This document shows positions 9,885-64,000 of a stretch of DNA of 64,000 nucleotides, one piece after another. Under the pieces are notes generated by a model. It saw only the letters and a list, made by a program, of their open reading frames with translations. It ran no database searches and was not told where the DNA came from. Numbering within the stretch: position 1 is the stretch's first letter; every line of letters begins with the position of its first letter. The stretch comes from a virus. Position numbers and translations under genes: made by a program. Location: IMG/VR virus record IMGVR_UViG_3300029049_000006, one strand, 5' to 3'.

Positions 9885-9909
9885 CGTCCATCCAACCGCA
9901 CAATCTACT

Positions 9910-10485
9910 ATGGCCGCACAATCATCATCTGATATTGCTTCACTTGCCGCGCAGCTGGCGGCAGCCCCGCTTCCGGGAGACGGAGGAAAAGCCTCCGCCA
10001 TTTCCGAACCTTCCCGCATGCTTCCGCAGGAAAAATATGACCATGACCTGTCGGAATTGTTTCTCACGGAGGGCACGACGGATATCGCCGGATATAAAGT
10101 CGCTTCTCCTACCCTGGCTTCATTTATGCTGCTGGAATTGCTCGGAAACAGTTTCGTCATGGTTGAAAATCTTGGCCAGATTCCGGCAAACCTGTTCACG
10201 TTTACTACCGTTCAGGCATTGGCCGTCCTGCGTTTCAAGGACACCTACAAACTGGTGAAAATGATTGCCGAAGACCGGGACGCTTTTGACCGTCTGGTGC
10301 TGCGCATGGCCGAAGAGCTTCCGGCATCAACCCCCGTACTGGACATAGCCGTTGCTATCGTTGAATTGATGAACAACGGAAAACGGTCGAGCGCCAAGGA
10401 ATCCCCCAACCCGAAAAAGCGTCAGGCCCCGGCAAAAGGAAAAAAAGCGTCAAGCCGCCGTGGTGGTTCATCACAGCCAGCATAG
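9910..10485 (+). CDS. hypothetical protein (possible tail assembly chaperone; basic C-terminus)
   Basis: ATG 9910; C-terminal KKRQAPAKGKKASSRRGG. Confidence 0.3.
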   Translation: MAAQSSSDIASLAAQLAAAPLPGDGGKASAISEPSRMLPQEKYDHDLSELFLTEGTTDIAGYKVASPTLASFMLLELLGNSFVMVENLGQIPANLFTFTTVQALAVLRFKDTYKLVKMIAEDRDAFDRLVLRMAEELPASTPVLDIAVAIVELMNNGKRSSAKESPNPKKRQAPAKGKKASSRRGGSSQPA

Positions 10486-10678
10486 CGGCGAAACAGAGCG
10501 GAACAACGTTCCACTATTGCCTTTACCGGATGCCCGCTATGGAGGCGTTTGCCCATGAGCATGTATGGATGCTGATGCAGGGCATTGAGTGCTATCTTCC
10601 ATTTTACGAGTCTTCATAAATCCATACACACACATTCTGGGTTGATTTACATCAACCCTTTTTTATTCTTTACCGTAT

Positions 10679-13867: not shown

Positions 13868-13879
13868 TGTGATATTAGA

Positions 13880-13899
13880 AATTTGCAATCATTGCAAAT
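13880..13899. promoter_or_regulatory. 21-bp palindrome copy
   Basis: Immediately after TMP stop codon. Confidence 0.8.
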
Positions 13900-13907
13900 C
13901 AGGAATT

Positions 13908-14708
13908 ATGGCTATTTCACACAACGGACCACGGGAACCCATTGAACAGCCCGGAACGATGACCGTCGAACGAGTGTCGGAAGACGGCGTGGTCCGGTTT
14001 GAAAAATCAGCAACCAGAGTGTTTGAGGTCCCGAAAGATATGGCGGCGGCCTTCATGCTGACCCCCCCGGCAACCCCCATGCCGGGAACGATCTTTTTGG
14101 AGTCAAGGTGTGAGGAAGAAAATGCGGAGTGGTCCAAGGTGACATTCACCTACGGCGAAGACCCGGACGATTCATCCGGAAGCGGCGGGGACGATTCCGT
14201 GCGCCGAACGGTCAACGTCACTACCTCCCTGGTGGATATCCCTATCCAATGTTCGCCAAAGTACATTGACATGTCCGGTGATTCCCCGAAATCGAAAATT
14301 CCTGATGACGATTTAAAGCTTCTGGCCTATGCCATGTCCGGGCAGTTCAAAGACCCCCGGAACAACACCTATATTAAGGACAGCCTTACTTCGGACATGG
14401 CCCGCGAGATTTTCGACTACCTGACGCTCGGAATCACGCACTTTGCCTATCCGCAGACCGTGATACGCATTTCTTATCCAAAGTCCAAAGTAGGTTCCGG
14501 CCAGCAATTCGGCGTTCCCACCAAAACGCCCGGAAAAAAGGGAGATGCCATTCCGGTAAAACTCCCGGAAGACAGCAAAATTGATTTCACATTGATTTCC
14601 CGGTCTATCAACTACGACGGGAAATACCACACGACAGACGAAGAATACCAGTCATCGTCCCCGCTGGGCTGGATAAATGACCGGAAGTTCTGGGGGGAAG
14701 GGGAATAA
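13908..14708 (+). CDS. putative distal tail protein
   Basis: ATG 13908 right after palindrome; position after TMP. Confidence 0.3.
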   Translation: MAISHNGPREPIEQPGTMTVERVSEDGVVRFEKSATRVFEVPKDMAAAFMLTPPATPMPGTIFLESRCEEENAEWSKVTFTYGEDPDDSSGSGGDDSVRRTVNVTTSLVDIPIQCSPKYIDMSGDSPKSKIPDDDLKLLAYAMSGQFKDPRNNTYIKDSLTSDMAREIFDYLTLGITHFAYPQTVIRISYPKSKVGSGQQFGVPTKTPGKKGDAIPVKLPEDSKIDFTLISRSINYDGKYHTTDEEYQSSSPLGWINDRKFWGEGE

Positions 14709-14722
14709 ACCTGTAAAATATT

Positions 14723-17206
14723 ATGGCATTACGGCGAGTACAAAGAGGGGAACCCTTACGTATTGGACAGATTAACCAGTACGCCGAACTTCTCGGGCAG
14801 ATGGCCGGAGGCGGAAAGCTCTTCCGGGCCAACAGGACCGGCTACCAGATGGACCGGGACCTGAACCCCCTGTTCCCATTTGAGCTGATGGCCCTGGATG
14901 CCCAGTCAAGCACCGGGGAAGCTACAAAAGGCGTGCCGCTGGCGAAATCCAAGGATTTAATCGCGTTTCTCCACCCCGGTTCCGTCACGTTTATCGGACT
15001 GGACGGCGCGGCCTCGCAGGTGTTCCCGGTTATCAAAGACCCGAAATACGCCCCTACGGATTCCCCCGGCGGAGGAAACGAAGATGGAGCCGCCGTCAAT
15101 ACCTGGCCCCGCCCCGGTATTCAAATTGAGCTTGATACGGTATATGGCATCCACCTGTTCGCCAAATTAGAGCGGGTGACGATGCAGATAGGCCGTGACC
15201 GGATAATTCAGGTGTCGGTCAAGAAATGGTGTCGTGACCGCACCCCATTCATCGGCACGGAGGACGAAATGGACAGCTCCGCTTCGGATGATGAAGACAT
15301 TATCCGGACGTTCATTCCATTGTTCCGGCCCATTGAAGACAGCGCAATCGAAGGAAACGTTTATGTGGAAAACCTGCATGAAAGCGATTTGATTCTTCCG
15401 GACATTCCGCTTGAGGGCGGATCGTCGTCTTCCTCGGCATCCTCTTCATCCAGCAGCTCCAGTAGTTCGAGCGGCGGGGTATCGTTCAGCAGTTCAAGCA
15501 GCTCATCATCAAAATCAGAGGGTTCGGAATCCGCATCTTTTTCCTCGTCTTCGTCGTCAGTAGGACCCTACATTGACCCTACACTGATTTCCGTGCCGGC
15601 GCGGGAACCCAATTCGGAATTCGGCGGCATCTACCGCACTCTGAAAGGCTTTAATTTCCCGCCCAGCGACGACAAGCCGGGCATGGCCTACATTATCATT
15701 TTCAGCCCTGTCGAATCTTGCGACTGGGTAAACTTTTCCACAGCCGGATTGGTGGAAACCAAAACGGACAAGCAATGGGAAGGCTACGTCGCCATTGACG
15801 ACAACGGGAATTGGGATTGCAATGTCATCATTGACGAATTCACCGACCCGGAACATACCGGCGTCCACCGCTACAAAGATTTCAAAGTTGGCTACCGGGC
15901 TAAAAAGCAGAACATAGCCGTCGATATTCTCATTGTTGACCAGGCGCCCCCGGAAGTGTCCTCTTCCTCGTCTTCGTCGTCTGTGAGTTCATCTTCGGAA
16001 GAAAAGTATTATTTCCGGTTTGTCCCTAATAAAATTACGGTGGACAGCCAATTTCAGAAAGTACAGGGCTATATCCGCACCGACTCCCCCTACGGGTGGA
16101 AAATCCCAGAGGACTTTCCGGCGCAGTTCCCTTCCGGGAAATGGGTATCTATTTCCCCGCTGACCGGGAAAGACCACGATAATTTTGAGGTTACGTTCCA
16201 GAAAAACGAGGAAGGGACCACCCGCGATAATCTGGTAACAGGGTACGCATTGACCTCGCGCGGCACATTGATGCTGGAAGCAACCGACACCCTGAATGTC
16301 ACCCAGACCCCGGAAGCCTCTTTATCCAGCAGTTCAAGCAGTTCGAGCAGTTCCTCTTCATCTTCATCATCTTCATCATCTTCCTCTTCCTCTTCCGGCT
16401 CGTCAAGTTCGTCCCAGGCGGACTGGTTTGAAGTGTTCCCTACTTCTATGGCCTTTGGCGCGGACGGCAAGCCAAAAGATTCTAACAAGGTAAGGCTTCG
16501 CGGAACGGTCGGATGGCAGGCTGATACGCAAAAAGACTGGTGTTCCATGTCCCCGTCATCCGGCTCAGCGCCAGGGGATGCAGGGACAGAAGCCGTGATA
16601 ACCTGCCAACCGAACAAGGAGGTCAACGGAAGAAGCACACTGGTTGAAATTAGCGTCACCCTGAATGGGTCGCCGCAATATTACTACGTCAATGTCATCC
16701 AGGAAGGCAATCCTCCTGTTCCTTCGTCGGAAAGCGAATCTTCCTCATCCTCGGAAGCCTCTTCGGGAGCCAGTTCGGCTTCATCAAGCAAAACCGCCAT
16801 TTTGCCGGTGCGCGGAAAGTTCCTCGGAATGATGTGCATGGAATCCCCGGAAACCTGGTTTGTCGACTTCGCCACCATTCACCTTCCGCTTGGGCTGATG
16901 CTGGTTGACCAGACGTTCATTGATGTTACCGAGCCGGGTTCCATAGCGGTTGTGTCCGCCATAGATGACCGGGGCCGCCCCGCAAGAGCATGGCTGCGGC
17001 TGGAAGGCAGGGAAAAGAAATATCTGACCTTGTATGCCCGTCCGCAGGGGTTGGGCCGGATATTCAGGCCGGACCGCATTACCGTCCAACTGATAGGGAG
17101 ACGCCTCGGACACCGGAGCAGGTTCCCGGAATTTTCAGAAGCGCAGTTCCGGGCGAACGAAGCGTTCTATGCCCAGGCGCACAGGGAGGAACCCCCGGAA
17201 GAGTAA
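14723..17206 (+). CDS. tail fiber / tail tip protein with poly-Ser linkers
   Basis: 827 aa; three long Ser tracts (nt ~15421-15565, 16315-16415, 16735-16800) separating globular domains; position after TMP/Dit. Confidence 0.5.
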   Translation: MALRRVQRGEPLRIGQINQYAELLGQMAGGGKLFRANRTGYQMDRDLNPLFPFELMALDAQSSTGEATKGVPLAKSKDLIAFLHPGSVTFIGLDGAASQVFPVIKDPKYAPTDSPGGGNEDGAAVNTWPRPGIQIELDTVYGIHLFAKLERVTMQIGRDRIIQVSVKKWCRDRTPFIGTEDEMDSSASDDEDIIRTFIPLFRPIEDSAIEGNVYVENLHESDLILPDIPLEGGSSSSSASSSSSSSSSSSGGVSFSSSSSSSSKSEGSESASFSSSSSSVGPYIDPTLISVPAREPNSEFGGIYRTLKGFNFPPSDDKPGMAYIIIFSPVESCDWVNFSTAGLVETKTDKQWEGYVAIDDNGNWDCNVIIDEFTDPEHTGVHRYKDFKVGYRAKKQNIAVDILIVDQAPPEVSSSSSSSSVSSSSEEKYYFRFVPNKITVDSQFQKVQGYIRTDSPYGWKIPEDFPAQFPSGKWVSISPLTGKDHDNFEVTFQKNEEGTTRDNLVTGYALTSRGTLMLEATDTLNVTQTPEASLSSSSSSSSSSSSSSSSSSSSSSSSGSSSSSQADWFEVFPTSMAFGADGKPKDSNKVRLRGTVGWQADTQKDWCSMSPSSGSAPGDAGTEAVITCQPNKEVNGRSTLVEISVTLNGSPQYYYVNVIQEGNPPVPSSESESSSSSEASSGASSASSSKTAILPVRGKFLGMMCMESPETWFVDFATIHLPLGLMLVDQTFIDVTEPGSIAVVSAIDDRGRPARAWLRLEGREKKYLTLYARPQGLGRIFRPDRITVQLIGRRLGHRSRFPEFSEAQFRANEAFYAQAHREEPPEE

Positions 17207-17234
17207 CCTTCCCTGCCTTCCGGGGGCCTCCGGC

Positions 17235-17603
17235 CTATGCCCATATAACATTCCCCAGCCGGGAAATATCCACCGCCTTTTTCCCGGCGCGCACAGCCGC
17301 CCTCAGTTCCCCGTAGTTTCTGCGGATTTCATGCGTTACCGGGTAATCCCGGAACACGTTGATATAATTCAGCCACCGTTCCTTTTGCGTGTACACCGCC
17401 GAATCTTTTATTATGTAGATTGTTGCGCTTTCGTCAATTTTCCTGTCCGGGATGCACGTGCAGCAATACCACTGATACCACTCATGGATGAGGTACACCG
17501 TATTAAAGCCGCGCAGGGTCATGACAGCCGTATCGGCGATATATTTGGGGGCCAGATTAAAAAGCTGCTCTTTGGTCAGTTCAATTTTCTTTGGTGCTTT
17601 CAT
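17235..17603 (-). CDS. hypothetical protein (only minus-strand gene; moron-like)
   Basis: 122-aa protein-like ORF; reverse-complement upstream carries TCTTGCAATT ... TATGATAA promoter copy and shares palindrome 17675-17695; + strand frames here look non-coding. Confidence 0.5.
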   Translation of the reverse strand: MKAPKKIELTKEQLFNLAPKYIADTAVMTLRGFNTVYLIHEWYQWYCCTCIPDRKIDESATIYIIKDSAVYTQKERWLNYINVFRDYPVTHEIRRNYGELRAAVRAGKKAVDISRLGNVIWA

Positions 17604-17674
17604 TGTATCTTGATGCCCTTATCATAGCTATCTTTTTAAAAATTGCAAGAGAAAAATACACATTCCACGAGAAA

Positions 17675-17695
17675 AATTTGCAATCATTGCAAATT
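17675..17695. promoter_or_regulatory. 21-bp palindrome copy between divergent genes
   Basis: AATTTGCAATCATTGCAAATT. Confidence 0.8.
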
Positions 17696-17746
17696 TCAGA
17701 AATCAATGTTGCCCATGAAAATTCAGGCGGCTATAGTGTCAAAGAC

Positions 17747-18799
17747 ATGATAACCTTAAACCATCTCGGAATATCCCACGCGGTCATCATTGCCCTGCCG
17801 GAACGTGCCGAACATGTTTCCCGGCTGAAAAACTCCATGATTGACGGAGGCATCGACCCGGAAAGCGGCGTTACCATACTCCCTGCCTGGAACGGTCGTG
17901 AGCTGCACCCCCCGAAAAGCTGGAAGGGGACCCGTGGCGCATGGGGCTGCGTACAGTCCCACATCCGGGCCTTGCGGCTCGCAGTCAAAAACAATTGGGA
18001 ATCAGTGCTCATTTTGGAGGACGACGCCATATTTTGCCGCAATGCCGCCGTCAGACTGCAAACGTTGTTTGCCGCTCTGCCGAAAGACTGGCGGTTGCTC
18101 TACCTCGGAGGCCACCACCAAAACTGGCCGAAAGAAGTCCACGCGGATTACATTTTGGCTTCCGGCATGACGGCCACCCACGCCTACATCGTCAAACGGG
18201 AATCCGTGCCCTGGCTTATCAAGCACATCGCCTATTATCCCGACTACGAACAACAGCAATGGGGCGTTGACCAGCAAATCCGGAACGCCGTCTATCGGGG
18301 CGACATCCTCCAATACGCCCCGCGCTGGAATATTGTAGGGCAACAGCGTCAGGAGTACAGCACCATTGCCCATTCCAGAGCCGGAAACCGGGAACGCTGG
18401 TGGGAGCATTCGCAAAACGACCAGTTCCGCCTGCTTCCGCTCGTACTTCTCCAAGAGCCGTTAACCGTGGAAGACGTTGACGGGCTTGAGGAACTGGTGG
18501 ACATCGCCCCGGAAAAAAGCGTTGAATCCCTTCTGGAAAAAACGGAAGACATGGCCGGCGCCATCATTGAAGCACTTTCCTACAGCGCACGGGGAGCGTT
18601 CAGCCACCGGCGCGTTCCCGCCCTGTATTACAGCGACCGGAAAGCTGCGGACAGATGCGCCCGCCTGTGGTCTGCGGAATGCCTGTTTGCCGAAGCCGGT
18701 GATTCCGACCAAACCAGGGAACTTCTCGTTACCGCCCTGCGCCGCGTTGTCGATTATGCGGAAAACCCGGATATGAACCCGGACATGGGCGAAAACTAA
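17747..18799 (+). CDS. glycosyltransferase family 25 (Lic2A/LgtB-like) with ~130-aa C-terminal extension
   Basis: HAVIIALPERAEHVSRL N-terminus; KGTRGAWGCVQSHIRALRLAV and LILEDDAIF match GT25 GEiGC.lSH / lEDD signatures. Confidence 0.7.
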   Translation: MITLNHLGISHAVIIALPERAEHVSRLKNSMIDGGIDPESGVTILPAWNGRELHPPKSWKGTRGAWGCVQSHIRALRLAVKNNWESVLILEDDAIFCRNAAVRLQTLFAALPKDWRLLYLGGHHQNWPKEVHADYILASGMTATHAYIVKRESVPWLIKHIAYYPDYEQQQWGVDQQIRNAVYRGDILQYAPRWNIVGQQRQEYSTIAHSRAGNRERWWEHSQNDQFRLLPLVLLQEPLTVEDVDGLEELVDIAPEKSVESLLEKTEDMAGAIIEALSYSARGAFSHRRVPALYYSDRKAADRCARLWSAECLFAEAGDSDQTRELLVTALRRVVDYAENPDMNPDMGEN

Positions 18800-18821
18800 T
18801 TCTTTTTCCACGCACATTACT

Positions 18822-19862
18822 ATGGATTATTTATTTCCGCATTATTTTGACCGTATTGTCGTCATCAATCTCGCCAAAAACCCCGAACGGTTCACCCGCA
18901 TTGCCGACGAGCTGAAACATAAGTGCCTGGCCGGGCCGGATGATATTGTCAGGCATGAAGCCGTGCATGGGGATTCCATGCCGCACCCGGCATGGTACAG
19001 GGCCGGAAACGGAGCATGGGGGTGCTTGTCCAGCCACATTGAGGCGCTGGAAGATGCCTGGAACACCGGAAGCGAACATACTCTGATTATTGAGGATGAC
19101 ACCGTATTCGCCGACGACCTTTTGACACGGTTCCCGGAAATCATGAAAGAAGTTCCGAAGGAATACGGGCAGTTGTATCTTGGAGGCCAGCACCAACAGG
19201 CCCCGGAAGCCCTGTCTGACACGTTGTGGCGCGGCACGTCCATCAACCGGACGCACTGCTACGCCGTCACCCGGAAATTCATTCCGGAAATCCTCGCCCA
19301 TATCATGGACTGGGACACCCACATCAAGGCTGCGGGAAACCCGCTCCATATCGACCACACGCTGGAAATCGGACACCAGCGCCGGTACTGGCCCGTGTTC
19401 TGCCCCCGGTTCTGGTTCGCGGGACAGGGAGAAAACCAGTCCGACATCAACGGCAGGCCGCAGCGGGAAATGTGGTGGGAATACTCCGTGAAACAACAGC
19501 ACCTGGAACTTCCCCTGCTTGTGCTACGGACCGTTGACACGCCAAAACATATTAAAGGCCTTGTGTTTGCCGGTTGGCCGACAGATTTAGACGCCCGTGG
19601 CGTGAATAAAAAGATTGAGGATGCCAAAAAAGACAAGGCCACTCTGCTTCGGGAAATAAGCTGGCTGGCTTACGTGGGATTCCAGCACCACAGCCTTCCG
19701 GCGGTGTATCTTCCGGAGCCGGAACCTATCAGCGAGCTGCAACGCCTGTGGTCCGGGGAAGTCGTTGACACAGCCCGCATGGATGACGCGGACATTCACC
19801 GGATGCACCGCATTCTGGAATTCGCCAGCAACCCGGAGATGCTAAAGTATAGGTTCCGATAG
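18822..19862 (+). CDS. glycosyltransferase family 25, paralog 2
   Basis: RIVVINLAKNPERF, GNGAWGCLSSHIEALEDAW, LIIEDDTVF; paralogous to 17747..18799. Confidence 0.7.
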   Translation: MDYLFPHYFDRIVVINLAKNPERFTRIADELKHKCLAGPDDIVRHEAVHGDSMPHPAWYRAGNGAWGCLSSHIEALEDAWNTGSEHTLIIEDDTVFADDLLTRFPEIMKEVPKEYGQLYLGGQHQQAPEALSDTLWRGTSINRTHCYAVTRKFIPEILAHIMDWDTHIKAAGNPLHIDHTLEIGHQRRYWPVFCPRFWFAGQGENQSDINGRPQREMWWEYSVKQQHLELPLLVLRTVDTPKHIKGLVFAGWPTDLDARGVNKKIEDAKKDKATLLREISWLAYVGFQHHSLPAVYLPEPEPISELQRLWSGEVVDTARMDDADIHRMHRILEFASNPEMLKYRFR

Positions 19863-22548: not shown

Positions 22549-25047
22549 ATGACATCACAAGAAAAATACATTCAAAAATTGGACGACATGTTCGCCAGCG
22601 CGGTGAGTGTCGTATTTACGCCAAGCCGTGAACCGCGCAGAACTGTAGAGGCTGTCAAGGCAATGGGGGCGCGGGACAATGTGCCGGTGTTCGTCTGGAA
22701 CGATGTGTACGGCTGGAAAGTCTTTACCGGACAGGACCGCACCGTAGGAGTCCCGGTTGACGCGGATTCCCCGGTAGGCAATTTTTATCAGGCGTTGCGC
22801 CGCATCCTGGGATTTAAAATCGGGGAAAACACCAGTAACGCGTCTTCCCGATTTGATTATGAAAAAGGCGCGGCGTATATCGTCATGGAGGGCACTAGCC
22901 CGCATCTTGGTTTGCTTCCAATGACGACAACTCTTCTCAAGGATTACGCCTATTCCTTCCCGGAAACGCTCATGAGCCTTGTGTTGATTACGTCGGAATC
23001 CTACACCATTCCGGAAGAGCTGGCCCACGACATTCTGGTTGTGGATTTTGACCTGCCGACAAAAACCGACTTGCGCCATGCATGGGAAAGCACCGTAGCT
23101 AATCAGTATGAGTCCAAGAACCTTCCGATTCCCGAAACCTATATTCCGGGGGACAGTGTGGATGCGCTTGTCAACGCGGCATCCGGCATGACGATTCTGG
23201 AAGCGGAAACTGCGTATTCAAGGGCTTTCACCCTTAATGACCGCCTGTTCCCGGATATTCCCGTTGAGAACCTTCTCGCGCAGGTACACCGCTCAAAGGA
23301 AGACATTGTGAAAAAGTCGCAGACGCTGGAAATGGTTAACCCCATTCCGGTTGATTCCATTGGCGGCCTGGAATTGCTGAAAGACTGGTTTATCACGCGG
23401 TCGGTATGTTTCAGCGAAGAGGCCCGCAAGGCGAAAGTTGATGCGCCTAAAGGCGTAGCCCTTATCGGGCCGCCTGGATGTATTGCCGCGCATACTGTCC
23501 TGCGTTACCGCCGTGGGAAGCGCAACAGCTCCCGTCAGATTACTGCGGAACGCCTGTATGCGAGATTCAACGGCCTTGAGGCGAATCCGGCGTGGTCATG
23601 GGACAATCAGCAGACTTACCTGCATTCTTACGACGTGAATACGGGCCGTGTCATGTACAACCGGGTTGAGGCCGTTACCGACGCCGGAGAAAAAGAATGT
23701 CTCCGCATCACGCTGTCCGACGGCTCAAGCTTTACTGCGTCCAGGAAGCACCCTGTATTGACCCCGGAAGGGTTTAAGCCGTTGCAGGAGATAGCCGCCG
23801 GTGATACGGTCCTGTCAAAAACAGATTTGCGTCCACGCAGGGCAGGCAAAAAAGCGGAGCGTCCGGAGCGGAAAACGGTCGAAGGCCTGAAATACTACTC
23901 TTCCGGGTGGAGGCACGCCGCCAACGGATGCGAGTACCGCAGGCAGCACCGCTCCCGGCTGGTCGTCGAGGCGTCGATGAACCGTCTGGACTACGATGAA
24001 TTCGTGCGTCGCCTTAAAACGGACCCGTCGGCATTGTGCCTTAAAGTGCTTGGACGTGAATACGACGTGCACCACATTGACGGGAATCCCATGAATGACC
24101 GCCTGGATAATCTACTGGTCATCCACAGAGCTGACCACAAAACTTTACACCACCATTCAGGTCAGGATAAATTCAACATCCAGTTCACAAAATCATTGCA
24201 GGTTGTCGCTGTCGAGGACGCCGGGGTTCAGCATTGCTTTGACATCCAAATGGCCCAGCCGTTCGACAATTTTTGCGTCGAATCCGGGCTCATTGTGCAT
24301 AATACGGGTAAGTCGGTATGCTCCAAGGCGGTGGCATCCATTCTCAATCTTCCCCTCGTGCGGGTGGATTTGGGGCGGCTGTTCGGGTCTCTCGTCGGCC
24401 AGACGGAAGCCCGTACCCGCACCATGTTGAAGGAATTGGAAGCTATGGCCCCCTGCATTGTCTGGGTGGATGAAGTTGACAAGGCGGGCCTGTCTTCCGG
24501 GGCTAATGGAGATTCCGGCGTATCTTCCCGCCTGCTGGGTTCTCTGCTGACCCACATGTCGGAAAACGAGTCCGGTTTGTTCTGGATTTTCACCGCCAAC
24601 CGGACGGAAAACCTTCCGTCGGAATTCTTGCGGAAGGGGCGGCTGGATGAAGTCTTTTCCGTCCTGCCTCCGACTTGGGCTGAACGCCGCCAGATTTTCG
24701 ATATCCACTTGAGCAAGCGCGGAATCAATATTGATGATATTGTTGACTTTGACCAGGTGCTGACGGAAAGCCGGGGATTCGTGTCTGCGGAAATTGAAGC
24801 CGCGTGCAAGGAAGCGAAAGTGCTTTCTTTTTATCGGAACGTTCCGGTTACGAGCAGCCTTTTGCGGTCCACCCTTAAAGGCATCATTCCAATTTCGGAA
24901 GCGTACAAAGACCAGTTTGACGCTATGACCGAGTGGGCGCAGAATAACGCGAGGCCGTCTTCCGAGCAAGAGGTTGACGTTGATGCTTCCAGCCCGCTTC
25001 CGTCCAGCATTCCGGAATCGTTGCGTGCCCGCCGCCGCAGGCATTGA
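22549..25047 (+). CDS. AAA+ ATPase interrupted by an intein (557-aa host protein plus 275-aa intein)
   Basis: Walker A split GVALIGPPG|C...HN|TGKS; downstream Walker B IVWVDEVDKA and AAA+ sensor region; N-terminal ~300 aa of unknown function. Confidence 0.7.
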   Translation: MTSQEKYIQKLDDMFASAVSVVFTPSREPRRTVEAVKAMGARDNVPVFVWNDVYGWKVFTGQDRTVGVPVDADSPVGNFYQALRRILGFKIGENTSNASSRFDYEKGAAYIVMEGTSPHLGLLPMTTTLLKDYAYSFPETLMSLVLITSESYTIPEELAHDILVVDFDLPTKTDLRHAWESTVANQYESKNLPIPETYIPGDSVDALVNAASGMTILEAETAYSRAFTLNDRLFPDIPVENLLAQVHRSKEDIVKKSQTLEMVNPIPVDSIGGLELLKDWFITRSVCFSEEARKAKVDAPKGVALIGPPGCIAAHTVLRYRRGKRNSSRQITAERLYARFNGLEANPAWSWDNQQTYLHSYDVNTGRVMYNRVEAVTDAGEKECLRITLSDGSSFTASRKHPVLTPEGFKPLQEIAAGDTVLSKTDLRPRRAGKKAERPERKTVEGLKYYSSGWRHAANGCEYRRQHRSRLVVEASMNRLDYDEFVRRLKTDPSALCLKVLGREYDVHHIDGNPMNDRLDNLLVIHRADHKTLHHHSGQDKFNIQFTKSLQVVAVEDAGVQHCFDIQMAQPFDNFCVESGLIVHNTGKSVCSKAVASILNLPLVRVDLGRLFGSLVGQTEARTRTMLKELEAMAPCIVWVDEVDKAGLSSGANGDSGVSSRLLGSLLTHMSENESGLFWIFTANRTENLPSEFLRKGRLDEVFSVLPPTWAERRQIFDIHLSKRGINIDDIVDFDQVLTESRGFVSAEIEAACKEAKVLSFYRNVPVTSSLLRSTLKGIIPISEAYKDQFDAMTEWAQNNARPSSEQEVDVDASSPLPSSIPESLRARRRRH
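23479..24303 (+). mobile_element. intein with HNH homing-endonuclease domain inserted in the P-loop
   Basis: Starts Cys (TGT 23479), ends ...GLIVHN (AAT 24301-24303) followed by Thr+1; block B TASRKHPVLT; block F/G HCFDIQMAQPFDNFCVESGLIVHN; HNH motif EYDVHHIDGNPMNDRLDNLLVIHRADHKTLHHH; excision restores GPPGTGKS. Confidence 0.7.
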
Positions 25048-56765: not shown

Positions 56766-58256
56766 ATGCACCAGGACACCGACGCAGAAAATGCCGCCAG
56801 TCAGAGCCGGTTGAACGAAACCGCCATGCTGATTCCCCGGCTGCTGTTAAAAGCCCGTACTGATTTTATTGCATTTTTGCTTGCCATTTCCGACGACGAA
56901 TCCGGCTACATCCTGTCCCGAATGCACCTGTTTATTGCGGGCAAGCTCAATGATACCGTCACCCGGAAGGACGTGCCGAGGAATTACACTATTTCCGTAC
57001 CACCCCAGCACGGGAAGTCCTCCCTGATTGTGCGGTATGTCGCGTGGCTGGTTGGGTCTTATCCCAGATTGTGCGTTGCCCTGACCGGCTTCTCCGCTGA
57101 ATTGATGGGTCAGATGCTCCGGCAGGTCACATCCATTATGGATTTGCCCGTGTACCAGGTAATTTTTCCCGGAGTGAAAGTGAAGCCGAAGGATGACCGC
57201 TGGGACTATAAACGGTTCACCAATGACGCTATTATTTATGCTAAGCCGGCAGGCTCCAAGCTGACCGGGAGGCGGGTGGACATCCTCATTATTGACGACC
57301 CCCATGCCGGACGTGCCGAAGCCGAATCCCCCACTATCCGCAACCGCGTTGTGCAGTGGGCAGTTGCAGACTGCTTTTCCCGCCTTTCGCCTCATTGGCG
57401 GGTGTTTGTCATTGGAACCCGGTGGCATCCGGAAGACCTCATTGGACATCTCACCGGGCGGGAATACAATAAACGGCTTGAAATGCTTGGCAATACCGCC
57501 ATGAAATTTGAAGTCATCAAGATTCCCGCTATCTGCGAAGACCCGGCTACCGACCCCCTGGGGCGGAAGGCTGGGGAAGTAGCATTCCCGGAAGAGCGTG
57601 ACTTGGAGTTTTTAACATCCATCCGTGGGGCCATGACTACGACAGAATGGAAATCCCAGTATCAGCAGGAGCCGGTCACGTCCAAGGGCGGGCAGGTCAA
57701 CGCGGACGATTTTAACCTCATTTCCCCGGAGGAAGTGCCGTGGAGCGAGCTGACGGCCATAGGCTCCGGCTGGGACTTGGCCGCAACCGACAAAACGGCA
57801 TCCGACTGGACCGTGGGCGCATGCGGGGCGCGGACAAAGGATGGCCGCCTGTATATTTTCGACCAGTTCCGCAGGCAAATGCAGATTCCAAAACTGCTTC
57901 CGGCCATTGAAGCCCGCGCCCTGGCGTGGAAAGATATGTACGGGGCCAATCAGCTGGGCGTGGAAGGCGTGGGGGGCATGGTGGGGTATTATCAGCAGCT
58001 CCGGCAAATGCTCCTGGGAAAAATCAGCGTGCGGCTCAAAAATCCCCCGGTCAAAGGAGGGGGAAAACTGGTGCGGGCGCAAAACTGGCTGGCTCTGGTG
58101 GAGGCAAAAAAAGTGTATCTGGTACAGGCTCCCTGGGTGCGGTCGTTTCTGGAAGAGGTGGAAGTATTCCCGGACGGGGACCACGATGACCAGGTGGACA
58201 GCGTATCCATTCTTTACGAGCTTCTGTTTCTCTCCGCCCGCATTCTGGTCGGATAG
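56766..58256 (+). CDS. terminase large subunit
   Basis: PQHGKSS P-loop, VDILIIDDPH Walker B, VIGTRWH, C-terminal RNase-H-like nuclease with DLAATDK and DHDDQVDS. Confidence 0.8.
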   Translation: MHQDTDAENAASQSRLNETAMLIPRLLLKARTDFIAFLLAISDDESGYILSRMHLFIAGKLNDTVTRKDVPRNYTISVPPQHGKSSLIVRYVAWLVGSYPRLCVALTGFSAELMGQMLRQVTSIMDLPVYQVIFPGVKVKPKDDRWDYKRFTNDAIIYAKPAGSKLTGRRVDILIIDDPHAGRAEAESPTIRNRVVQWAVADCFSRLSPHWRVFVIGTRWHPEDLIGHLTGREYNKRLEMLGNTAMKFEVIKIPAICEDPATDPLGRKAGEVAFPEERDLEFLTSIRGAMTTTEWKSQYQQEPVTSKGGQVNADDFNLISPEEVPWSELTAIGSGWDLAATDKTASDWTVGACGARTKDGRLYIFDQFRRQMQIPKLLPAIEARALAWKDMYGANQLGVEGVGGMVGYYQQLRQMLLGKISVRLKNPPVKGGGKLVRAQNWLALVEAKKVYLVQAPWVRSFLEEVEVFPDGDHDDQVDSVSILYELLFLSARILVG

Positions 58257-58289: not shown

Positions 58290-58608
58290 CAGAGACCGCG
58301 CCCAAAAGCTTTTTTCCTTTACTTTTCACTTTTCCGGCACAAACAATACCAGCCCATGAAGTTCCACAGCCTTTCCATGCTTTTTACGCTCCGTGGCCCT
58401 CCCCGCCCTGTTTTTCAGCTTGTCCCCCAGGCAATCCGCGAACGGTCGGATGCGCGAGGACGGGAACGCATCATTTCCCGCGTCTGAAATAAATGGCTTT
58501 CACCATCAGGCGCAATCTCCGCATTTCCTTTTTCTGTTGCCTTCGCCGGATTGCCCCCCCTCGTCAGGAAGGGAACGGCAAACCGTAACCATAAACAAAA
58601 AGATAGAA

Positions 58609-59484
58609 ATGACAGTTCAAACCTTACCGGCAACCGTGCCGGACAGCGTTTCTGCGACCTTGCGCGTCGTCATGAAGCCCGTGGAATCAATTCACCCCTA
58701 CGAAAATAACCCCCGCTACAACGACAGCGCGGTTCCCTACGTCAAAAACTCAATTCAGGAGTTCGGCTTCAAGGTTCCGATTATCGTCGATGAAGCCGGA
58801 AGCATTGTCTGCGGTCACACGAGGTACAAGGTGGCCCTGGAATTGGGCATGAGCCATGTGCCTTGCATTGTCGCTTCGGATTTGACCCCAAAGCAGATTC
58901 AGGCGTTCCGCCTTGTTGATAACAAGGTGTCGGAGTTTTCAAGCTGGGATTTTTCCAAACTTGAAATTGAGATAGGGGAGCTGGATGCCGAATTTAATCT
59001 TGATGACTTCGGTTTTTTCTCCGATTCAGAGCGGGCGGGAAGCTCGCCGGCGGATGTGGGCAGTGCCGCAGAAATGCAGGATGATACTGCGAGGGATGAC
59101 CGGAATATCTATACAGGACGCATCATTACTCCGGTTTATGAAATTACCGGGGATTGTCCAAAAACCGAAGAGCTGGTTGACCGCACCAGAGCGGAATCCC
59201 TGCTGGAAGAGATTGACCGGACCCCAGGGCTTCCGGATGCCGTGCGTGACTTTTTGCGTATTGCCGCCATGCGGCACTATGTCCTGCATTTCGACAGGAT
59301 AGCCGAGTTTTACGCCCATGCGGTCCCTCCTGTGCAGCGGCTCATGGAAAACTCCTGTCTGGTCATTATTGATTATGACCGCGCCATTGAACTTGGATAT
59401 GTGCAAATGGCACGTGCCCTGGCCGATGAATATGACCGAGAATACCCGGAAGGGGAAGAACAGGAAGGAGGCAGCGAATCATGA
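58609..59484 (+). CDS. ParB-like nuclease-domain protein with conserved C-terminal domain (paralog A)
   Basis: IHPYENNPRYNDSAVPYVKNSIQEFGFKVPIIVDEAGSIVCGHTRYKVALELG matches ParB/Srx N-terminal domain (NPR...SI...G...P..V....G..R..A); C-terminal domain shared with 62638..63480. Confidence 0.6.
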   Translation: MTVQTLPATVPDSVSATLRVVMKPVESIHPYENNPRYNDSAVPYVKNSIQEFGFKVPIIVDEAGSIVCGHTRYKVALELGMSHVPCIVASDLTPKQIQAFRLVDNKVSEFSSWDFSKLEIEIGELDAEFNLDDFGFFSDSERAGSSPADVGSAAEMQDDTARDDRNIYTGRIITPVYEITGDCPKTEELVDRTRAESLLEEIDRTPGLPDAVRDFLRIAAMRHYVLHFDRIAEFYAHAVPPVQRLMENSCLVIIDYDRAIELGYVQMARALADEYDREYPEGEEQEGGSES

Positions 59485-60416
59485 TGCGGCACTCTGATTT
59501 CTGCGTCCTGATTATTTCCCATGGACGGGCCGGGAGGGTGAAAACCCTGAACGCGCTTGAGCGTTTTGGCTATAGCGGCCCCTGGTACATTATTATCGAC
59601 AATGAGGATTCACAGGCCGGGGACTACCTTAATTGCTATGGGAGTGACCACGTTGTTGTTTTTGATAAACCCCTTGAGGCATCCAGGCTGGACATAGCGG
59701 ATAATTTTACAGGCCGTCTTGGGCGCAAAAGTACCGTGTACGTACGCAATGCGAGCTTTGACATTGCCCGCCGCCTGGGATTCCGGTATTTCATGGTGCT
59801 GGACGACGATTACGACTATTTCCGTTTCGTATTGGACAGCAACCGCCGCTATACTTGCCGGCGCTGTACCTGTCTGGACACAATCCTTGACATCTGCCTC
59901 GATTACTTCACCCGTACACCGGCCCTTGCCACCATAGCGTGGCTTCAAGGCGGCGACCTGCTGGGAGGGGCCAACTCCAACAGCCTTTTCAGCCTCCGGC
60001 GAAAAGCCATGAACAGTTTTATCTGTGACACGGAACGCCCCTTTTCCTTCATGGGCCGGTTTAATGAAGACGTGAACACCTACATCACTCACGGAAACCG
60101 GGGAGTGATCATGTTCTCAATTACGGAATTGGCGCTTAACCAGGCCAGCACCCAGCAGACGACGGGAGGGATGACGGAAGCCTACCAGGAAAACGGAACC
60201 TACGTGAAATCGTTTTACAGTGTCATGCATATGCCGTCTGCGGTGAAAATCCGGACAATGGGCGAACATTACCGAAGAATCCACCATGCTATTACATGGA
60301 ATAATTGTGTGCCGAAAATCATCCGTCCGGAGTACCAGAAACCGGATATTGTGCGGGGTGACAGAAGAAAACGCGGCAGGAGCCGAAAAAAACTGCTTGC
60401 AATTCCGGCCCCTTAA
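59481..60416 (+). CDS. hypothetical protein with DxD-like LDDDY motif (possible GT-A-fold nucleotide-sugar transferase), paralog A
   Basis: FCVLIISHGRAGRV...WYIIIDNEDS...FMVLDDDYDYF pattern resembles GT-A strand-loop-DxD layout; ATGA overlap with ParB-like gene. Confidence 0.4.
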   Translation: MMRHSDFCVLIISHGRAGRVKTLNALERFGYSGPWYIIIDNEDSQAGDYLNCYGSDHVVVFDKPLEASRLDIADNFTGRLGRKSTVYVRNASFDIARRLGFRYFMVLDDDYDYFRFVLDSNRRYTCRRCTCLDTILDICLDYFTRTPALATIAWLQGGDLLGGANSNSLFSLRRKAMNSFICDTERPFSFMGRFNEDVNTYITHGNRGVIMFSITELALNQASTQQTTGGMTEAYQENGTYVKSFYSVMHMPSAVKIRTMGEHYRRIHHAITWNNCVPKIIRPEYQKPDIVRGDRRKRGRSRKKLLAIPAP

Positions 60417-60538
60417 TAGGATATTGCGATTGTTACCCGCCCAACGGGAACCCGACAACAACCAATAATAGCTGCTATCCAGAAAAGACAAGCCCCCGGC
60501 CCCTTCCTGCATCCCACCCGCGTATCGGATTGCCTGTC

Positions 60539-60928
60539 ATGTGTACTGCAGGAAACCGGGGGCTTGTTTTCTTTCCCCCCTCAGGGTATAACGGCGGCGT
60601 TATGATTGCCTTGAATACTCCTATTGCCACCATACCGGGGCGCCGGTACTGCATCACCACAGTATCTTCCGTCCAGGTGATTGCCGTCATTGACGACGAA
60701 GAGTTTGATTTGCTGGGGGGCCTTCCCATTACTGGCCAGGCGCAATTTGTCGCCCCCACGGACCACATTGAGGTGCGTGACGCGTCAGCCCCGGAAGAAG
60801 GGGCGGCGGCCAGCGCATCGGAATCATCCCCAGAAACGTCAAGCGTCATGTTTGACGGCTCTGCAACGCCCCTTGCCGGAGACGCGGCTTCCGTGTCCGG
60901 GAGCATCGTCGAAATTGTACGCAGTTGA
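60539..60928 (+). CDS. hypothetical protein
   Basis: In-frame ATG of ORF 60530..60928; opposite-strand ORF looks like an antisense artifact. Confidence 0.3.
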   Translation: MCTAGNRGLVFFPPSGYNGGVMIALNTPIATIPGRRYCITTVSSVQVIAVIDDEEFDLLGGLPITGQAQFVAPTDHIEVRDASAPEEGAAASASESSPETSSVMFDGSATPLAGDAASVSGSIVEIVRS

Positions 60929-61220: not shown

Positions 61221-61979
61221 ATGCACTGTATCATTCCCCTGAAAGCACGCTCTATGCGTTGCCCAGGAAAAAATTTCAGAACCTGCAACCCGTATCTTTC
61301 CGGGGGCCTGATTCCGCTGTGGGAAGTGTCGGCCAGGTACGTCAGGGGCGAGGGATGGGAACCAGTTATTTCCTGTGACAGTCCGGAATTGTTGCATGAT
61401 ATTTCCCGGCGCGGATATGAACGCACTGTTTTATGGCATCCTGACCCGGAATCCCCATATATGCAGGGCCACATCAGTCAGGTTGCCGCGCAGATTAACG
61501 CCGGGGATTCCGACCTGCTTTGCGTAGTCCAGGCAACTTCCCCGGTAAGACGGCCCGGACTGCTTCGGGACATGCACACCTTGATGTCATCCGATACCAA
61601 TATTCAGGTGGCTTTTACAGGGGAACGCCTGAAAATTTGCGGCATCCTGAATGGCTCTCTTTTTGGGCAGGATGAAAGCCAGTCCGCCCGGCACTGGTAC
61701 GACCACTATGACGGGGCGCTTTTACTACTGCGCTATGATACTCTGAAACGCTGCCCCCCCCGAACAGTCGTGCATCCAGGGCTGCTGTCCGGCCCCAGTG
61801 ATAAAGTGGCCGTGTTTTACCAGACCCTGCCTTGGTCATTCCAAATCGACACGGAAGACGATTATTCCTTTTATCTGCAACTGCGGCGGCCTGATGCGGA
61901 AAAACAGTCAGCCTTCCGCAAACGGTCGAACCCGTACCGGGTATATACAAAAAGCGCAGCCCCTGATGAATTGGCATGA
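61221..61979 (+). CDS. CMP-sugar synthetase (acylneuraminate/KDO cytidylyltransferase family, CTP_transf_3-like)
   Basis: HCIIPLKARSMRCPGKNFRTCNPYLSGGLIPLWEV (ilAR.nSKglP.KNl...G.pLi); VISCDSPEL; LLCVVQATSPVRRPGLLRD (QPTSPLR). Confidence 0.65.
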   Translation: MHCIIPLKARSMRCPGKNFRTCNPYLSGGLIPLWEVSARYVRGEGWEPVISCDSPELLHDISRRGYERTVLWHPDPESPYMQGHISQVAAQINAGDSDLLCVVQATSPVRRPGLLRDMHTLMSSDTNIQVAFTGERLKICGILNGSLFGQDESQSARHWYDHYDGALLLLRYDTLKRCPPRTVVHPGLLSGPSDKVAVFYQTLPWSFQIDTEDDYSFYLQLRRPDAEKQSAFRKRSNPYRVYTKSAAPDELA

Positions 61980-62575
61980 TTGTATTGGTAGGAAATGCCC
62001 AGGAATCCGAACACCGGCTTAAAGACTGCTCCGCTTTTATTGATTCCGGCAAGCCCCGGCTGGTGGTGAGGGTGTCGAAAATGTGCAACTATGATTCCGG
62101 AAAAACCGGAACGCGCTGTGACTGGGTGTTCCTCAACCCTAATCCCATGTACTGGACCTTTCCGCCAGAGCGCCGCCATTGGAATGTGCTTGCCGGGGCC
62201 AGTAAAATCATCATCACCTATCCCCCTCCCGGAAGCCTGAAAGAAGGGCCTTGCATTCCTCCGTACTGGCAAAAGGAAGAATACCGGTTTCTGCACCAGC
62301 ACCCTTTTCTGGAATATTTGCCGGAGGCGGTGTTCCGGGAAGGGATGGACCGGCGGCTGACGACGTTCGGATTTGCCCTGTGGGTGCTTTCGCGGCGTTT
62401 CCCGCATGAGCAGATAGCCCTGCATGGGTGCATTACCTCGCAGAATGCGTGGCGCCGTGTCCGCTGGTGCCCCTGGCACAATGGCGTTGGCGAGTTTGCC
62501 CTGTATGCCAATCTGTCCCGGAACGGTCGGATTTTCAGGCTGGACGGCGGCGAATTATGCTTTAATGAGGATTGA
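61976..62575 (+). CDS. hypothetical protein, CstII/GT42 sialyltransferase-like (tentative)
   Basis: MIVLVGNAQES ~ CstII KKVIIAGNGPS; GTRCDWVFLNPNPMYW ~ GKKCKAVFYNPSLF; ATGA overlap with cytidylyltransferase. Confidence 0.35.
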   Translation: MIVLVGNAQESEHRLKDCSAFIDSGKPRLVVRVSKMCNYDSGKTGTRCDWVFLNPNPMYWTFPPERRHWNVLAGASKIIITYPPPGSLKEGPCIPPYWQKEEYRFLHQHPFLEYLPEAVFREGMDRRLTTFGFALWVLSRRFPHEQIALHGCITSQNAWRRVRWCPWHNGVGEFALYANLSRNGRIFRLDGGELCFNED

Positions 62576-62597
62576 AACCATGCTAAGAATCCATGAG

Positions 62598-62619
62598 AAT
62601 TTGCAATCATTGCAAATTT
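62598..62619. promoter_or_regulatory. 21-bp palindrome copy
   Basis: AATTTGCAATCATTGCAAATTT. Confidence 0.8.
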
Positions 62620-62637
62620 CAAAAATCATTTTTACAC

Positions 62638-63480
62638 ATGGAAATTGTAGATATTGCCGTAAAAGACCTGGTTCCTTACGATAAAAATCCGCGCCGTAAT
62701 GATGAAGCGGCCGTCAAGGTGGCGGAATCCATTAAACAGTTCGGCTTTAAGATTCCTCTTGTGGTTGACCGCAATAATGTTGTTGTCTGCGGACACACCC
62801 GTTTAAAGGCCGCAAAAAAGTTAAAGCTTAAAACTGTTCCTTGCATCCGGGCTGACGATTTGTCGGAAGACCAAATCAAGGCGTTCCGTCTGGTGGACAA
62901 TCGGACGGCGGAAATCGCCGAATGGGATTTTGCCCTTTTAGAAGAGGAACTGGCGGACGTGCAGCTTGACATGACCGCCTTTGACTTCGGTGGGCTTTTG
63001 CCGGAAGAAGAGGGTGGGGGCGAAAACGGTCAGACCTCGGCGGGGGCCGGAAATGGAAGGGAGGAAGAAAGTGCATTACCGGATTCGCAAACTGCGGAAA
63101 ATATGTACACGCAGCGCATCGTCACTCCGGTTTATGAAGTTACCGGGGATTGCCCGGAAGTGTCTTCTCTGGTGGACAAGGGCAAAGCGGAAGCGCTGCT
63201 GGAATCCATTGACCAAGCCCAGGAACTCCCGGATGATGTGCGGGAGTTTTTACGCATCGCCGCTGCCAGGCATTATGTTTTGCATTTTGACCGCATTGCC
63301 GAATACTACGCCCATGCCCCGGCCCATATTCAGCGGCTCATGGAAGATTCCTGTCTGGTCATCATTGATTTTAATAAAGCCATTGAGCAGGGATATATCC
63401 GCATGTCCGAACGGTTGGCCGCGCTGGCCAGCATAGACGAACAGGGCGCAACGGAAGAAGAAGACGAAGCGGGCGAATAA
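62638..63480 (+). CDS. ParB-like nuclease-domain protein (paralog B)
   Basis: LVPYDKNPRRNDEAAVKVAESIKQFGFKIPLVVDRNNVVVCGHTRLKAAKKL; C-terminal domain nearly colinear with paralog A. Confidence 0.6.
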   Translation: MEIVDIAVKDLVPYDKNPRRNDEAAVKVAESIKQFGFKIPLVVDRNNVVVCGHTRLKAAKKLKLKTVPCIRADDLSEDQIKAFRLVDNRTAEIAEWDFALLEEELADVQLDMTAFDFGGLLPEEEGGGENGQTSAGAGNGREEESALPDSQTAENMYTQRIVTPVYEVTGDCPEVSSLVDKGKAEALLESIDQAQELPDDVREFLRIAAARHYVLHFDRIAEYYAHAPAHIQRLMEDSCLVIIDFNKAIEQGYIRMSERLAALASIDEQGATEEEDEAGE

Positions 63481-63525: not shown

Positions 63526-64000
63526 ATGCTGACGCATTCCGATTTTTGTACGTTTATTTTGTCTCATGGGCGGCCAAATAACATCAGAACTCTGCACCCA
63601 TTGTTAAACACCGGAAACTACAGCGGCCCCTGGTACATCGTCATCGACAATGAGGACCCCACGGCGGAAACCTATTATCAGCTTTACGGCTCCAACCGGG
63701 TAATCATGTTTGACAAGGAGGCCGAAGCCCGCCGTCTGGATATTGCAGATAATTTCATCCACATGAGCCGCAAGACTATTACCTATGCTCGTAATGCCTG
63801 TTATGACATTGCCAGAAACTTAGGCTACACGTATTTTTGGCAACTGGATGACGATTATTGCCGGTTCCGGTACGTAACCGACCAGGCCGGAAAATACGTG
63901 TACCACAGCATCCGCCACATGGACGAGGCGTTGAACGCGACGCTTGATTATTATAAAAGCGTTCCTTCCCTGACCCTGCTGTCCTGGATGCAGGGCGGGG
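63526..64000 (+). CDS. DxD-motif protein paralog B, 3'-truncated at window edge
   Basis: MLTHSDFCTFILSHGRPNN...WYIVIDNEDP...FWQLDDDYCRF colinear with 59481..60416. Confidence 0.45.
   Translation, partial: MLTHSDFCTFILSHGRPNNIRTLHPLLNTGNYSGPWYIVIDNEDPTAETYYQLYGSNRVIMFDKEAEARRLDIADNFIHMSRKTITYARNACYDIARNLGYTYFWQLDDDYCRFRYVTDQAGKYVYHSIRHMDEALNATLDYYKSVPSLTLLSWMQGG

Follow-up and report, generated by a model that had tools for sequence, protein, structure and literature searches.

Does a bacteriophage carry its own machinery to activate a sialic-acid-type sugar and to attach it to an acceptor? The question is raised by two overlapping open reading frames (ORFs), here named ORF A and ORF B, which lie near the end of a 64,000-nucleotide stretch of the viral record IMGVR_UViG_3300029049_000006. 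This whole stretch is referred to as the window throughout, and positions are counted from its first nucleotide (see Table 1). Our preferred reading, to which we assign a probability of roughly 70%, is that ORF A makes a 2-keto-3-deoxy sugar acid activated with cytidine monophosphate (CMP), and that ORF B transfers this sugar in the cytoplasm. It builds on homology, gene fusion, conserved adjacency, purifying selection and, for ORF B only, the predicted fold; which reaction takes place, with what sugar and on what acceptor, is deduced from these.

Both ORFs are real genes under purifying selection. Direct reading of the sequence reveals that the end of ORF A and the start of ORF B have the tetranucleotide ATGA at 61976-61979 in common, as the initial annotation of this DNA had stated, and the peptides quoted there (IIPLKARSMRCPGKNF, QATSPVRRP, IVLVGNAQES, and GTRCDWVFLNPNP) are all present in the two translations. 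Homologous protein clusters were found in many metagenomes, 17 for ORF A and 9 for ORF B; the k-mer-seeded search returned only relatives of at least 79% identity (69% for ORF B), while an exhaustive phmmer search reached further. Measured against a sister lineage of 83% identity, the ratio of nonsynonymous to synonymous substitution rates (dN/dS) is 0.18 for ORF A and 0.11 for ORF B, next to 0.10 for the neighboring TAGT-family glycosyltransferase gene. Due to these low values, a reading of the two genes as pseudogenes in decay was rejected.

The start of ORF A required a closer look at its upstream region, since the mechanical ORF opens at 61023. Among close homologues, the region upstream of 61221 is read in two different frames, which converge just before MHCIIP, because a poly-C tract ahead of the gene varies in length between genomes. 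Fused as well as stand-alone distant relatives begin right at the IIP motif. Given these relatives and the unconstrained upstream stretch, position 61221 is the supported start. A promoter and terminator scan of the locus performed no better than chance, and a tRNA search returned none.

How ORF A is connected to CMP-sugar synthetases becomes apparent through longer relatives, in which a domain homologous to ORF A is fused to an ORF B-like domain. These fusion domains pass the Pfam model CTP_transf_3 with 31-56 bits (cut-off 22.6), and ORF A aligns with nearly their full length (25-29% identity; pairwise E-values of 2e-20, 5e-18, and 9e-13). A profile combining ORF A with the fusion cytidylyltransferase domains (A5) detected NeuA in the PDB with E-values from 1.5e-14 to 5e-11 and KdsB at about 5e-8, with no other significant match; its alignment to NeuA of N. 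meningitidis (1EYR) spans positions 2-215 of 223 profile positions. Since circularity of A5 was to be avoided, a second profile (A11) was rebuilt from stand-alone phage proteins only. It retrieved the same two enzyme classes and no others, NeuA at 8e-13 and KdsB at 8e-11. The NeuA/KdsB-family assignment proposed for ORF A by the initial annotation thus holds at the superfamily level only, by way of the CTP_transf_3-positive fusion domains and the two profiles.

The alignments place the expected motifs in register. With ORF A as a single sequence, the PDB search gave one match, to a NeuA (PpNeuA, E = 1) through the QATSP segment; a profile of close homologues matched the same protein at E = 0.38, with the N-terminal loop and the QATSP segment both collinear. 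Residues K8, S11 and K17-N18 align to the nucleotide loop of NeuA, and Q104-A-T-S-P108 to its LQPTSP. The P-loop-like pattern IIPxKxxSxRxPxKN and the QxTSP segment are conserved in the ORF A family, and the stand-alone phage clade, as aligned, has no variation at Q104, T106, S107 and P108. NeuA (1EYR; CTP_transf_3, with PseF/LegF-type relatives) provides the best profile matches and shares with ORF A the collinear IIPxxxxSxxxPxKN loop and QxTSP, a length of about 220-250 amino acids (aa) and a coding position beside a transferase. In contrast to NeuA, ORF A stays below the Pfam and NCBIfam thresholds, has Q-I-D in place of D-I-D, is at most about 20-25% identical, and is phage-borne. KdsB, which makes the CMP form of 3-deoxy-D-manno-octulosonic acid (Kdo), belongs to the same superfamily and is the second-best match class; we take its segment at the QATSP position to be of the QGDEP type, unlike the NeuA-type QATSP of ORF A. 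Because NeuA outscores KdsB in both profiles and QATSP is NeuA-type, a nonulosonic acid is, as far as these comparisons indicate, somewhat more likely than Kdo as the sugar of ORF A.

For ORF B, a single-sequence search of the PDB gave nothing meaningful, whereas a family profile built from a 23-sequence alignment did: its best 11 matches (E-values of 5.5e-6 to 0.35) are all sialyltransferases. The top match is porcine ST3Gal-I of glycosyltransferase (GT) family GT29, with E = 5.5e-6 over about 150 residues. In its L segment, VGN..IDsxDxVxRxN pairs with CAVVGN..IDSHDFVLRMN, and in its S segment, xTTgalal..ygfd pairs with PSTGILSV..LYGFG. C. jejuni CstII (GT42) follows at E-values of 4e-3 to 1e-2 over the first approximately 60 residues only. 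Among relatives of ORF B, the Pfam GT29 model (PF00777) gives 22.9 bits for protein cluster P0040 (cut-off 23) and 13 bits for P0032, and precomputed PF00777 matches exist for P0051, P0058, and P0059.

Structure prediction points in the same direction. An AlphaFold model computed on the 23-sequence alignment has a predicted local distance difference test score (pLDDT) of 84.9 and a predicted template modeling score (pTM) of 0.87. In a Foldseek search of this model against the PDB, ranks 1-14 are occupied by sialyltransferases (ST8SiaIII, CstII, ST6GalNAc2, ST3Gal-I, and CstI) with E-values of 1e-4 to 9e-3 and template modeling (TM) scores of about 0.52-0.57. We are confident that the model has the sialyltransferase fold, a GT-A variant. 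Since it matches structures of both GT29 and GT42, CstII included, a non-glycosyltransferase fold of the second ORF, which the initial annotation had named as evidence against its proposal, is not what the model displays. The segments in which a likeness to CstII was noted there are among those aligned by the profile, and the fold agrees with it; by sequence, the nearest solved relative is the GT29 enzyme ST3Gal-I instead.

Compared to its structural relatives, ORF B is a small protein. Its 199 aa (170-217 aa in relatives; isoelectric point, pI, of 8.9) face 291 aa in CstII and CstI, with which only the first ~60 residues align, and ORF B is without the ~290-aa architecture and the C-terminal region of CstII that we take to serve membrane association or oligomerisation. 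Relative to GT29 (porcine ST3Gal-I, 2WNB), it is about 100 residues shorter, remains below the Pfam threshold, and lacks the transmembrane stem and the conserved disulfide cysteines. Maf flagellin nonulosonic-acid transferases (MptE-like/DUF115) are much larger, multi-domain proteins without a sequence-level match to ORF B. The segment H168-NGVG-E173 resembles the GT29 VS motif, although the PDB alignment ends before this region, and E173 is invariant among the closer relatives (A6 alignment). By curated thresholds, ORF A is no formal member of CTP_transf_3, and ORF B is no formal member of GT29 or GT42.

The coupling of both genes is evident from their distribution. An exhaustive phmmer search with ORF B over 1.84 billion representative proteins gave 25 matches, among them stand-alone proteins (170-180 aa, 30-50% identity) as well as several of greater length. 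The latter are the fusions of an ORF B-like domain to a Pfam-passing CTP_transf_3 domain, the CTP_transf_3 domain being placed ahead of the ORF B-like domain in P0038, P0039 and P0043 and behind it in P0040; in P0041, the cytidylyltransferase domain follows a GT10 fucosyltransferase domain in a GT10-cytidylyltransferase-B protein. As the two functions are encoded by separate proteins here and by one polypeptide elsewhere, in both orders, these sequences are strong evidence for a shared pathway of ORF A and ORF B.

Locus scans of IMG/VR and GTDB, using a pattern from a seven-sequence subset of ORF B relatives, extended this picture. All ten matching loci in GTDB genomes carry both domains on one contig, eight of them as a single fused reading frame, and seven of the ten fused-type loci originate from Akkermansia/Verrucomicrobiales metagenome-assembled genomes with a guanine-plus-cytosine (GC) content of 50-56%. 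In IMG/VR, the pattern found four near-identical contigs and 12 distant viral contigs. An ORF A-like gene adjoins the ORF B-like gene in 11 of these 12, in the order A-then-B. Together with the natural fusions in both orders, this conserved adjacency bears out the activate-and-transfer pairing put forward in the initial annotation. Its remark that such a pair is very unusual in a phage does not stand, given the same cassette in 11 distant viral contigs. In three contigs (Table 1), the ORF B-like gene occurs as three tandem, diverged paralogues, and this triplication beside one A-like gene suggests that several acceptors or linkages are served by one activated donor. In BFVD, the ORF B family is represented by a 170-aa protein (31% identity, TM 0.71/0.82) of a 'Myoviridae sp.' associated with humans, and phage and giant-virus proteins annotated as GT29 are listed there too. 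No description of the A-B cassette was found in the literature searched, no member is functionally named in the sources searched, and a DNA search against GenBank phages revealed no related phage. On these comparisons, ORF A and ORF B define a compact sister clade, which takes the form of adjacent genes in phages and of fusion proteins in bacteria.

From this evidence, a two-step mechanism can be proposed. By homology, ORF A would condense cytidine triphosphate (CTP) with a free, host-supplied 2-keto-3-deoxy sugar acid to give a CMP-sugar, the sugar being a nonulosonic acid of the sialic, legionaminic or pseudaminic type, or possibly Kdo. By homology and fold, ORF B would act as a stripped-down sialyltransferase-fold enzyme that moves the sugar from CMP to an acceptor, and the base would probably lie in the motif His168-x4-Glu173. 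Since neither protein has a signal or membrane segment and both are soluble, the transfer would take place in the cytoplasm. The arrangement follows the same logic as neuA and cstII in the lipooligosaccharide loci of Campylobacter.

Where the sugar acid comes from was addressed by Pfam and PHROGs scans, which covered most plus-strand ORFs of at least about 70 aa in the window and in approximately 18 kb of flanking sequence (contigs L001, L002, and L015); the phage genome comprises about 88 kb, of which about 4 kb and many ORFans lie outside these scans. No NeuB/NeuC-type or Kdo-synthesis genes were found in the scanned window and flanks, and the sugar acid must therefore come from the host, in agreement with the host supply assumed in the initial annotation. 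The host is probably Akkermansia or another member of the Verrucomicrobiales: seven of the ten fused loci stem from such genomes, over most of its length the window has a GC content of 51-57%, compared to 50-56% in the fused loci of Akkermansia/Verrucomicrobiales, and the genome contig L043 has weak matches to tail genes of the studied phage. Of the ulosonic acids, Kdo is the one whose synthesis would be expected in a Gram-negative host of this kind.

Several observations weigh against our reading, the lack of synthesis genes among them. Scans with ORF A itself gave no match in Pfam and PHROGs, even at E ≤ 1, and in NCBIfam a sub-threshold match to PseF only (E = 0.11; 12 bits versus a cut-off of 206). 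The profile search for CTP_transf_3 suggested by the initial annotation hence has a divided outcome, with direct curated scans of ORF A below threshold and the homologous fusion domains passing, and the family membership of ORF A is supported at the superfamily level through transitive remote homology. An AlphaFold2 model of ORF A from 12 near-identical homologues reached a pLDDT of 33.6. In A11, NeuA and KdsB are separated by only about two orders of magnitude, and the sugar may therefore be of either kind. At the position of the D-I-D motif of NeuA (D209/D211), presumably two metal-binding aspartates that are essential in N. meningitidis, Q-I-D is invariant in all nine aligned stand-alone phage members; fused relatives keep D-I-D in P0040 and have Q-I-N in P0039. 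We treat Q-I-D as a real departure of the ORF A clade rather than as decay, and the chemistry or metal use of ORF A may differ from that of NeuA. ORF B has no curated family match in Pfam, PHROGs (E ≤ 1) or NCBIfam, and in the alignment some relatives lack the candidate catalytic histidine. Finally, the immediate neighbors of the cassette in the studied phage are DNA-type glycosyltransferases and not envelope genes.

This last point concerns the acceptor, which is the weakest step of the proposal. We favor a glycoconjugate, that is, a precursor of a host envelope glycan or a virion protein, and give this an even chance. It is preferred because the context of the cassette elsewhere is related to envelope or virion, and because Maf enzymes, which have the same fold as ORF B, sialylate proteins directly. 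In the distant phages, the neighbors of the cassette include genes for a tail protein, an amidase, and a peptidoglycan-binding protein, and none of these viral contigs has a ParB-like or TAGT gene near the cassette. The bacterial fused forms are located in surface-glycan loci with families typical of mammalian-type glycans, surrounded by GT4, GT31 and GT11 genes and a BNR (sialidase-like) protein. A metagenome contig carrying P0041 (L014, positions 1-19225) has a bacterial glycan locus that encodes GT4, GT31/GT11, GT6, the fusion of GT10, cytidylyltransferase and sialyltransferase-like domains, and one more GT10. In combination, these families are typical of mammalian blood-group/Lewis-type glycans and suggest host-glycan mimicry.

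The surroundings in the studied phage are different. The cassette is flanked by TerL, ParB-like protein 1, TAGT-family glycosyltransferase 1 (TAGT1) and a small acidic ORF on one side and by ParB-like protein 2 and TAGT2 on the other. Thus, the initial annotation correctly placed it between two ParB-like genes, but it missed the TAGT gene that follows each of them. The relatives of ParB-like protein 1 have 286-291 aa, and the stop of its gene overlaps the start of TAGT1. TAGT2 runs past the end of the window; its full gene, found in L001 (12507-13370), encodes a protein 54% identical to TAGT1. In a sister lineage, only the first ParB-TAGT pair is present, followed by A-B.

This environment gives rise to the best-surviving alternative, namely that the acceptor is DNA: the TAGTs, with their ParB-like partners, would glycosylate a hydroxymethylated pyrimidine, and ORF B would then use the product of ORF A, a CMP-activated acid, to cap this sugar, resulting in a negatively charged DNA glycan. 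Such an acceptor fits the position of A-B directly between two ParB-TAGT pairs beside the terminase gene, a placement retained by both sister lineages, and also a soluble, basic ORF B that is without the C-terminal membrane-association region presumed for CstII; the charge of the B family, however, spans -11 to +7 and does not discriminate DNA from a non-DNA acceptor. To our knowledge, no sialyltransferase-fold enzyme acts on DNA. Published systems provide several parallels. The TAGT family includes the T6 enzyme that adds a second glucose to glucosylated hydroxymethylcytosine, and reported phage GT clusters, typically adjoining ParB-like proteins, terminase and secondary GT genes, decorate 5-hydroxymethylcytosine (5hmC) with many sugars, in one case tentatively with Kdo. 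One of these 5hmC-decorating clusters that was tested (contig 53) has, and needs, a cytidylyltransferase, and ParB-like proteins can activate phage thymine dioxygenases, which are DNA-modifying enzymes. In the studied phage, each ParB-like protein is paired with a glycosyltransferase instead of a dioxygenase, which may point to ParB-assisted DNA glycosylation.

The studied phage resembles these DNA sugar-hypermodification clusters in its two TAGT and two ParB-like genes beside the terminase. It differs from them in that no 5mYOX, ThyS or C5-methyltransferase was detected in its scanned parts. More generally, Pfam and PHROGs identified no source of hydroxymethylpyrimidine in the window and flanks, neither a TET/JBP dioxygenase nor a thymidylate-synthase-type hydroxymethylase nor a C5-methyltransferase, although divergent dioxygenases could escape such scans; the sole DNA methyltransferase type found there is an N6-methyltransferase. 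The reported DNA glycosyltransferases have a GT-A or GT-B fold, in contrast to the sialyltransferase fold modeled for ORF B. Likewise, the tail and lysis genes around the cassette in 11 other phages, with no ParB or TAGT nearby, and the surface-glycan loci of the bacterial fusions argue against a DNA acceptor. We therefore regard it as unlikely, although still a possibility to be taken seriously given the local ParB-TAGT context, and slightly less likely again is that a DNA-linked sugar capped with a nonulosonic acid or Kdo constitutes the first 'sialylated' DNA. If true, ORF B would also be the first enzyme with a sialyltransferase fold to act on a glycan attached to nucleic acid.

A different objection concerns the substrate. 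ORF A might activate a non-ulosonic compound, e.g., a sugar phosphate or another alcohol, and ORF B might transfer a non-sialic moiety. The family-wide Q-I-D in place of D-I-D, differences at sugar-contacting positions and a weak NTP_transf_3 co-match in fused relatives could be taken in this sense, as could a phage DNA-modification cluster that uses a cytidylyltransferase in a heptose pathway. However, all significant PDB matches of ORF A profiles are CMP-Neu5Ac or CMP-Kdo synthetases, with no IspD, MobA or sugar-1-phosphate transferase among them, the QxTSP motif is NeuA-type, and the fold of the partner ORF B serves, among glycosyltransferases, CMP-ulosonic acid donors; this substrate reading is improbable. 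Least probable of all is that ORF B is a nucleotide-binding, pyrophosphokinase-like protein (thiamine pyrophosphokinase/MptE-type HPPK/SteA fold) that would, e.g., pyrophosphorylate a small molecule or a modified base: its profiles match only sialyltransferases and no kinase, Pfam matches in its relatives are to GT29 only, Foldseek ranks 1-14 are all sialyltransferases, and the repeated fusion or adjacency with a CMP-sugar synthetase fits a user of CMP-sugars and is left unexplained by an ATP pyrophosphokinase. This reading was accordingly ranked low.

Sialic-acid-type sugars mark 'self' on animal mucosa, and bacteria that display them evade immunity. In the preferred reading, a gut phage, probably of the mucin specialist Akkermansia, would bring with it a minimal set of enzymes for activating such a sugar and attaching it. 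Its other glycan enzymes are unusually numerous as well (GT11, two GT25, two TAGT, and a sulfotransferase). With the virion or the host surface as target, the phage would bring about glycan mimicry within the mucus; with DNA as target, hypermodification of DNA would be extended by an acidic sugar of 8 or 9 carbons and by an enzyme fold new to it. Current family models miss two clades that are defined by this analysis, one of compact sialyltransferase-like proteins (~170-200 aa) and one of Q-x-D cytidylyltransferases, and the natural A+B fusions could serve glycoengineering.

Expression of the cassette may be subject to switching by variable poly-C tracts, three of which are listed in Table 1. 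The lengths of the tract upstream of ORF A and of the one inside it were compared among six loci of 96-97% identity. In L001, the tract inside ORF A has only seven C, and the resulting frameshift alters the C-terminal ~70 residues (clusters P0013 and P0014); in the sister lineage this tract is interrupted (CCCTGCCC). All indels of the compared 1.5-kb region lie within homopolymers. No length variation was seen in five control tracts at other sites (C8 at 9581, A8, T9, T8, and A7). The window contains 18 homopolymer runs of at least 8 bases, 6 of them G/C runs, where about 3 are expected from base composition, i.e., approximately a six-fold excess. The variation is reminiscent of phase variation by slipped-strand mispairing in bacterial sialyltransferase loci; fixed differences between lineages would explain it equally well.

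Table 1. Coordinates of the cassette, its surroundings and related features (window positions unless a contig is named)
Feature	Location	Strand	Remarks
ORF A	61221..61979	+	ATG 61221 to TGA 61979, 252 aa; cytidylyltransferase-like, putative member of the CMP-nonulosonic/CMP-Kdo synthetase superfamily, divergent clade
ORF A motifs			IIPLKARSMRCPGKN (residues 4-18); Q104-A-T-S-P108; Q208-I-D210
ORF B	61976..62575	+	ATG 61976 to TGA 62575, 199 aa; putative compact sialyltransferase-like glycosyltransferase
ORF B motifs			L-like (VGN7 ... ID23S ... VVR32V); S-like (T129-T130); H168-x4-E173
TerL	56766-58256
ParB-like protein 1	58609..59484	+	likely ATG 58609 (mechanical ORF 58393); Pfam ParB_N, PHROG 620
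TAGT-family glycosyltransferase 1	59481..60416	+	PF20691 E = 1e-27; PHROG 842 E = 9e-63; DDD motif, basic C-terminal tail
Small acidic ORF between TAGT1 and ORF A	60530..60928	+	kept in all related loci; no family match
ParB-like protein 2	62593..63480	+	48% identical to ParB-like protein 1
TAGT-family glycosyltransferase 2	63526..64000	+	runs past window end; E = 7e-30
Poly-C tract	58554-58560		~50 nucleotides upstream of ParB-like protein 1 start; C5-C8 among 96-99% identical genomes
Poly-C tract C8	61200..61207	+	13-21 nucleotides upstream of ORF A start; 8-10 long in close relatives
Poly-C tract C8 inside ORF A	61754..61761	+	codons for C-P-P-R; 7-8 long in relatives
Tandem ORF B-like paralogues (three each)	L022 7992-9587; L023 7992-9584; L025 6692-8540
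~245-aa family	L026 6712-7449; L024 6684-7418; L025 5343-6065 (-); L022 5308-6156; L028 10248-10991
GT25 genes	17591-18799; 18822-19862		after tail genes
Other toolkit genes, flanking contigs	L015 8805-9521; L002 15480-15800; L001 20382-20951
Large tail-region protein	14723-17206		BACON/viral BACON domains
AAA ATPase gene	22549-25047		apparent intein

Further features were observed in the course of this analysis. The ParB-like proteins are very acidic (pI ~4.5), and each is encoded immediately before a TAGT. In other phages, a conserved family of about 245 aa, with VVDDxSxP and KIDSDT motifs of GT-A-like appearance, travels with the A-B cassette; it has no match in Pfam, PHROGs or the PDB profile search and is absent from the window. 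Besides the two GT25 genes, the glycan-related genes of the studied phage include one of GT11 (a fucosyltransferase family) between the portal and protease genes, as well as Sulfotransfer_2 and low-molecular-weight phosphatase-like genes, and the large tail-region protein has carbohydrate-binding domains of the BACON/viral BACON type. The AAA ATPase gene seems to be split by an intein that includes an HNH endonuclease domain, as indicated by sub-threshold Pfam matches to Intein_splicing and HNH_3 located between residues ~360 and 585.

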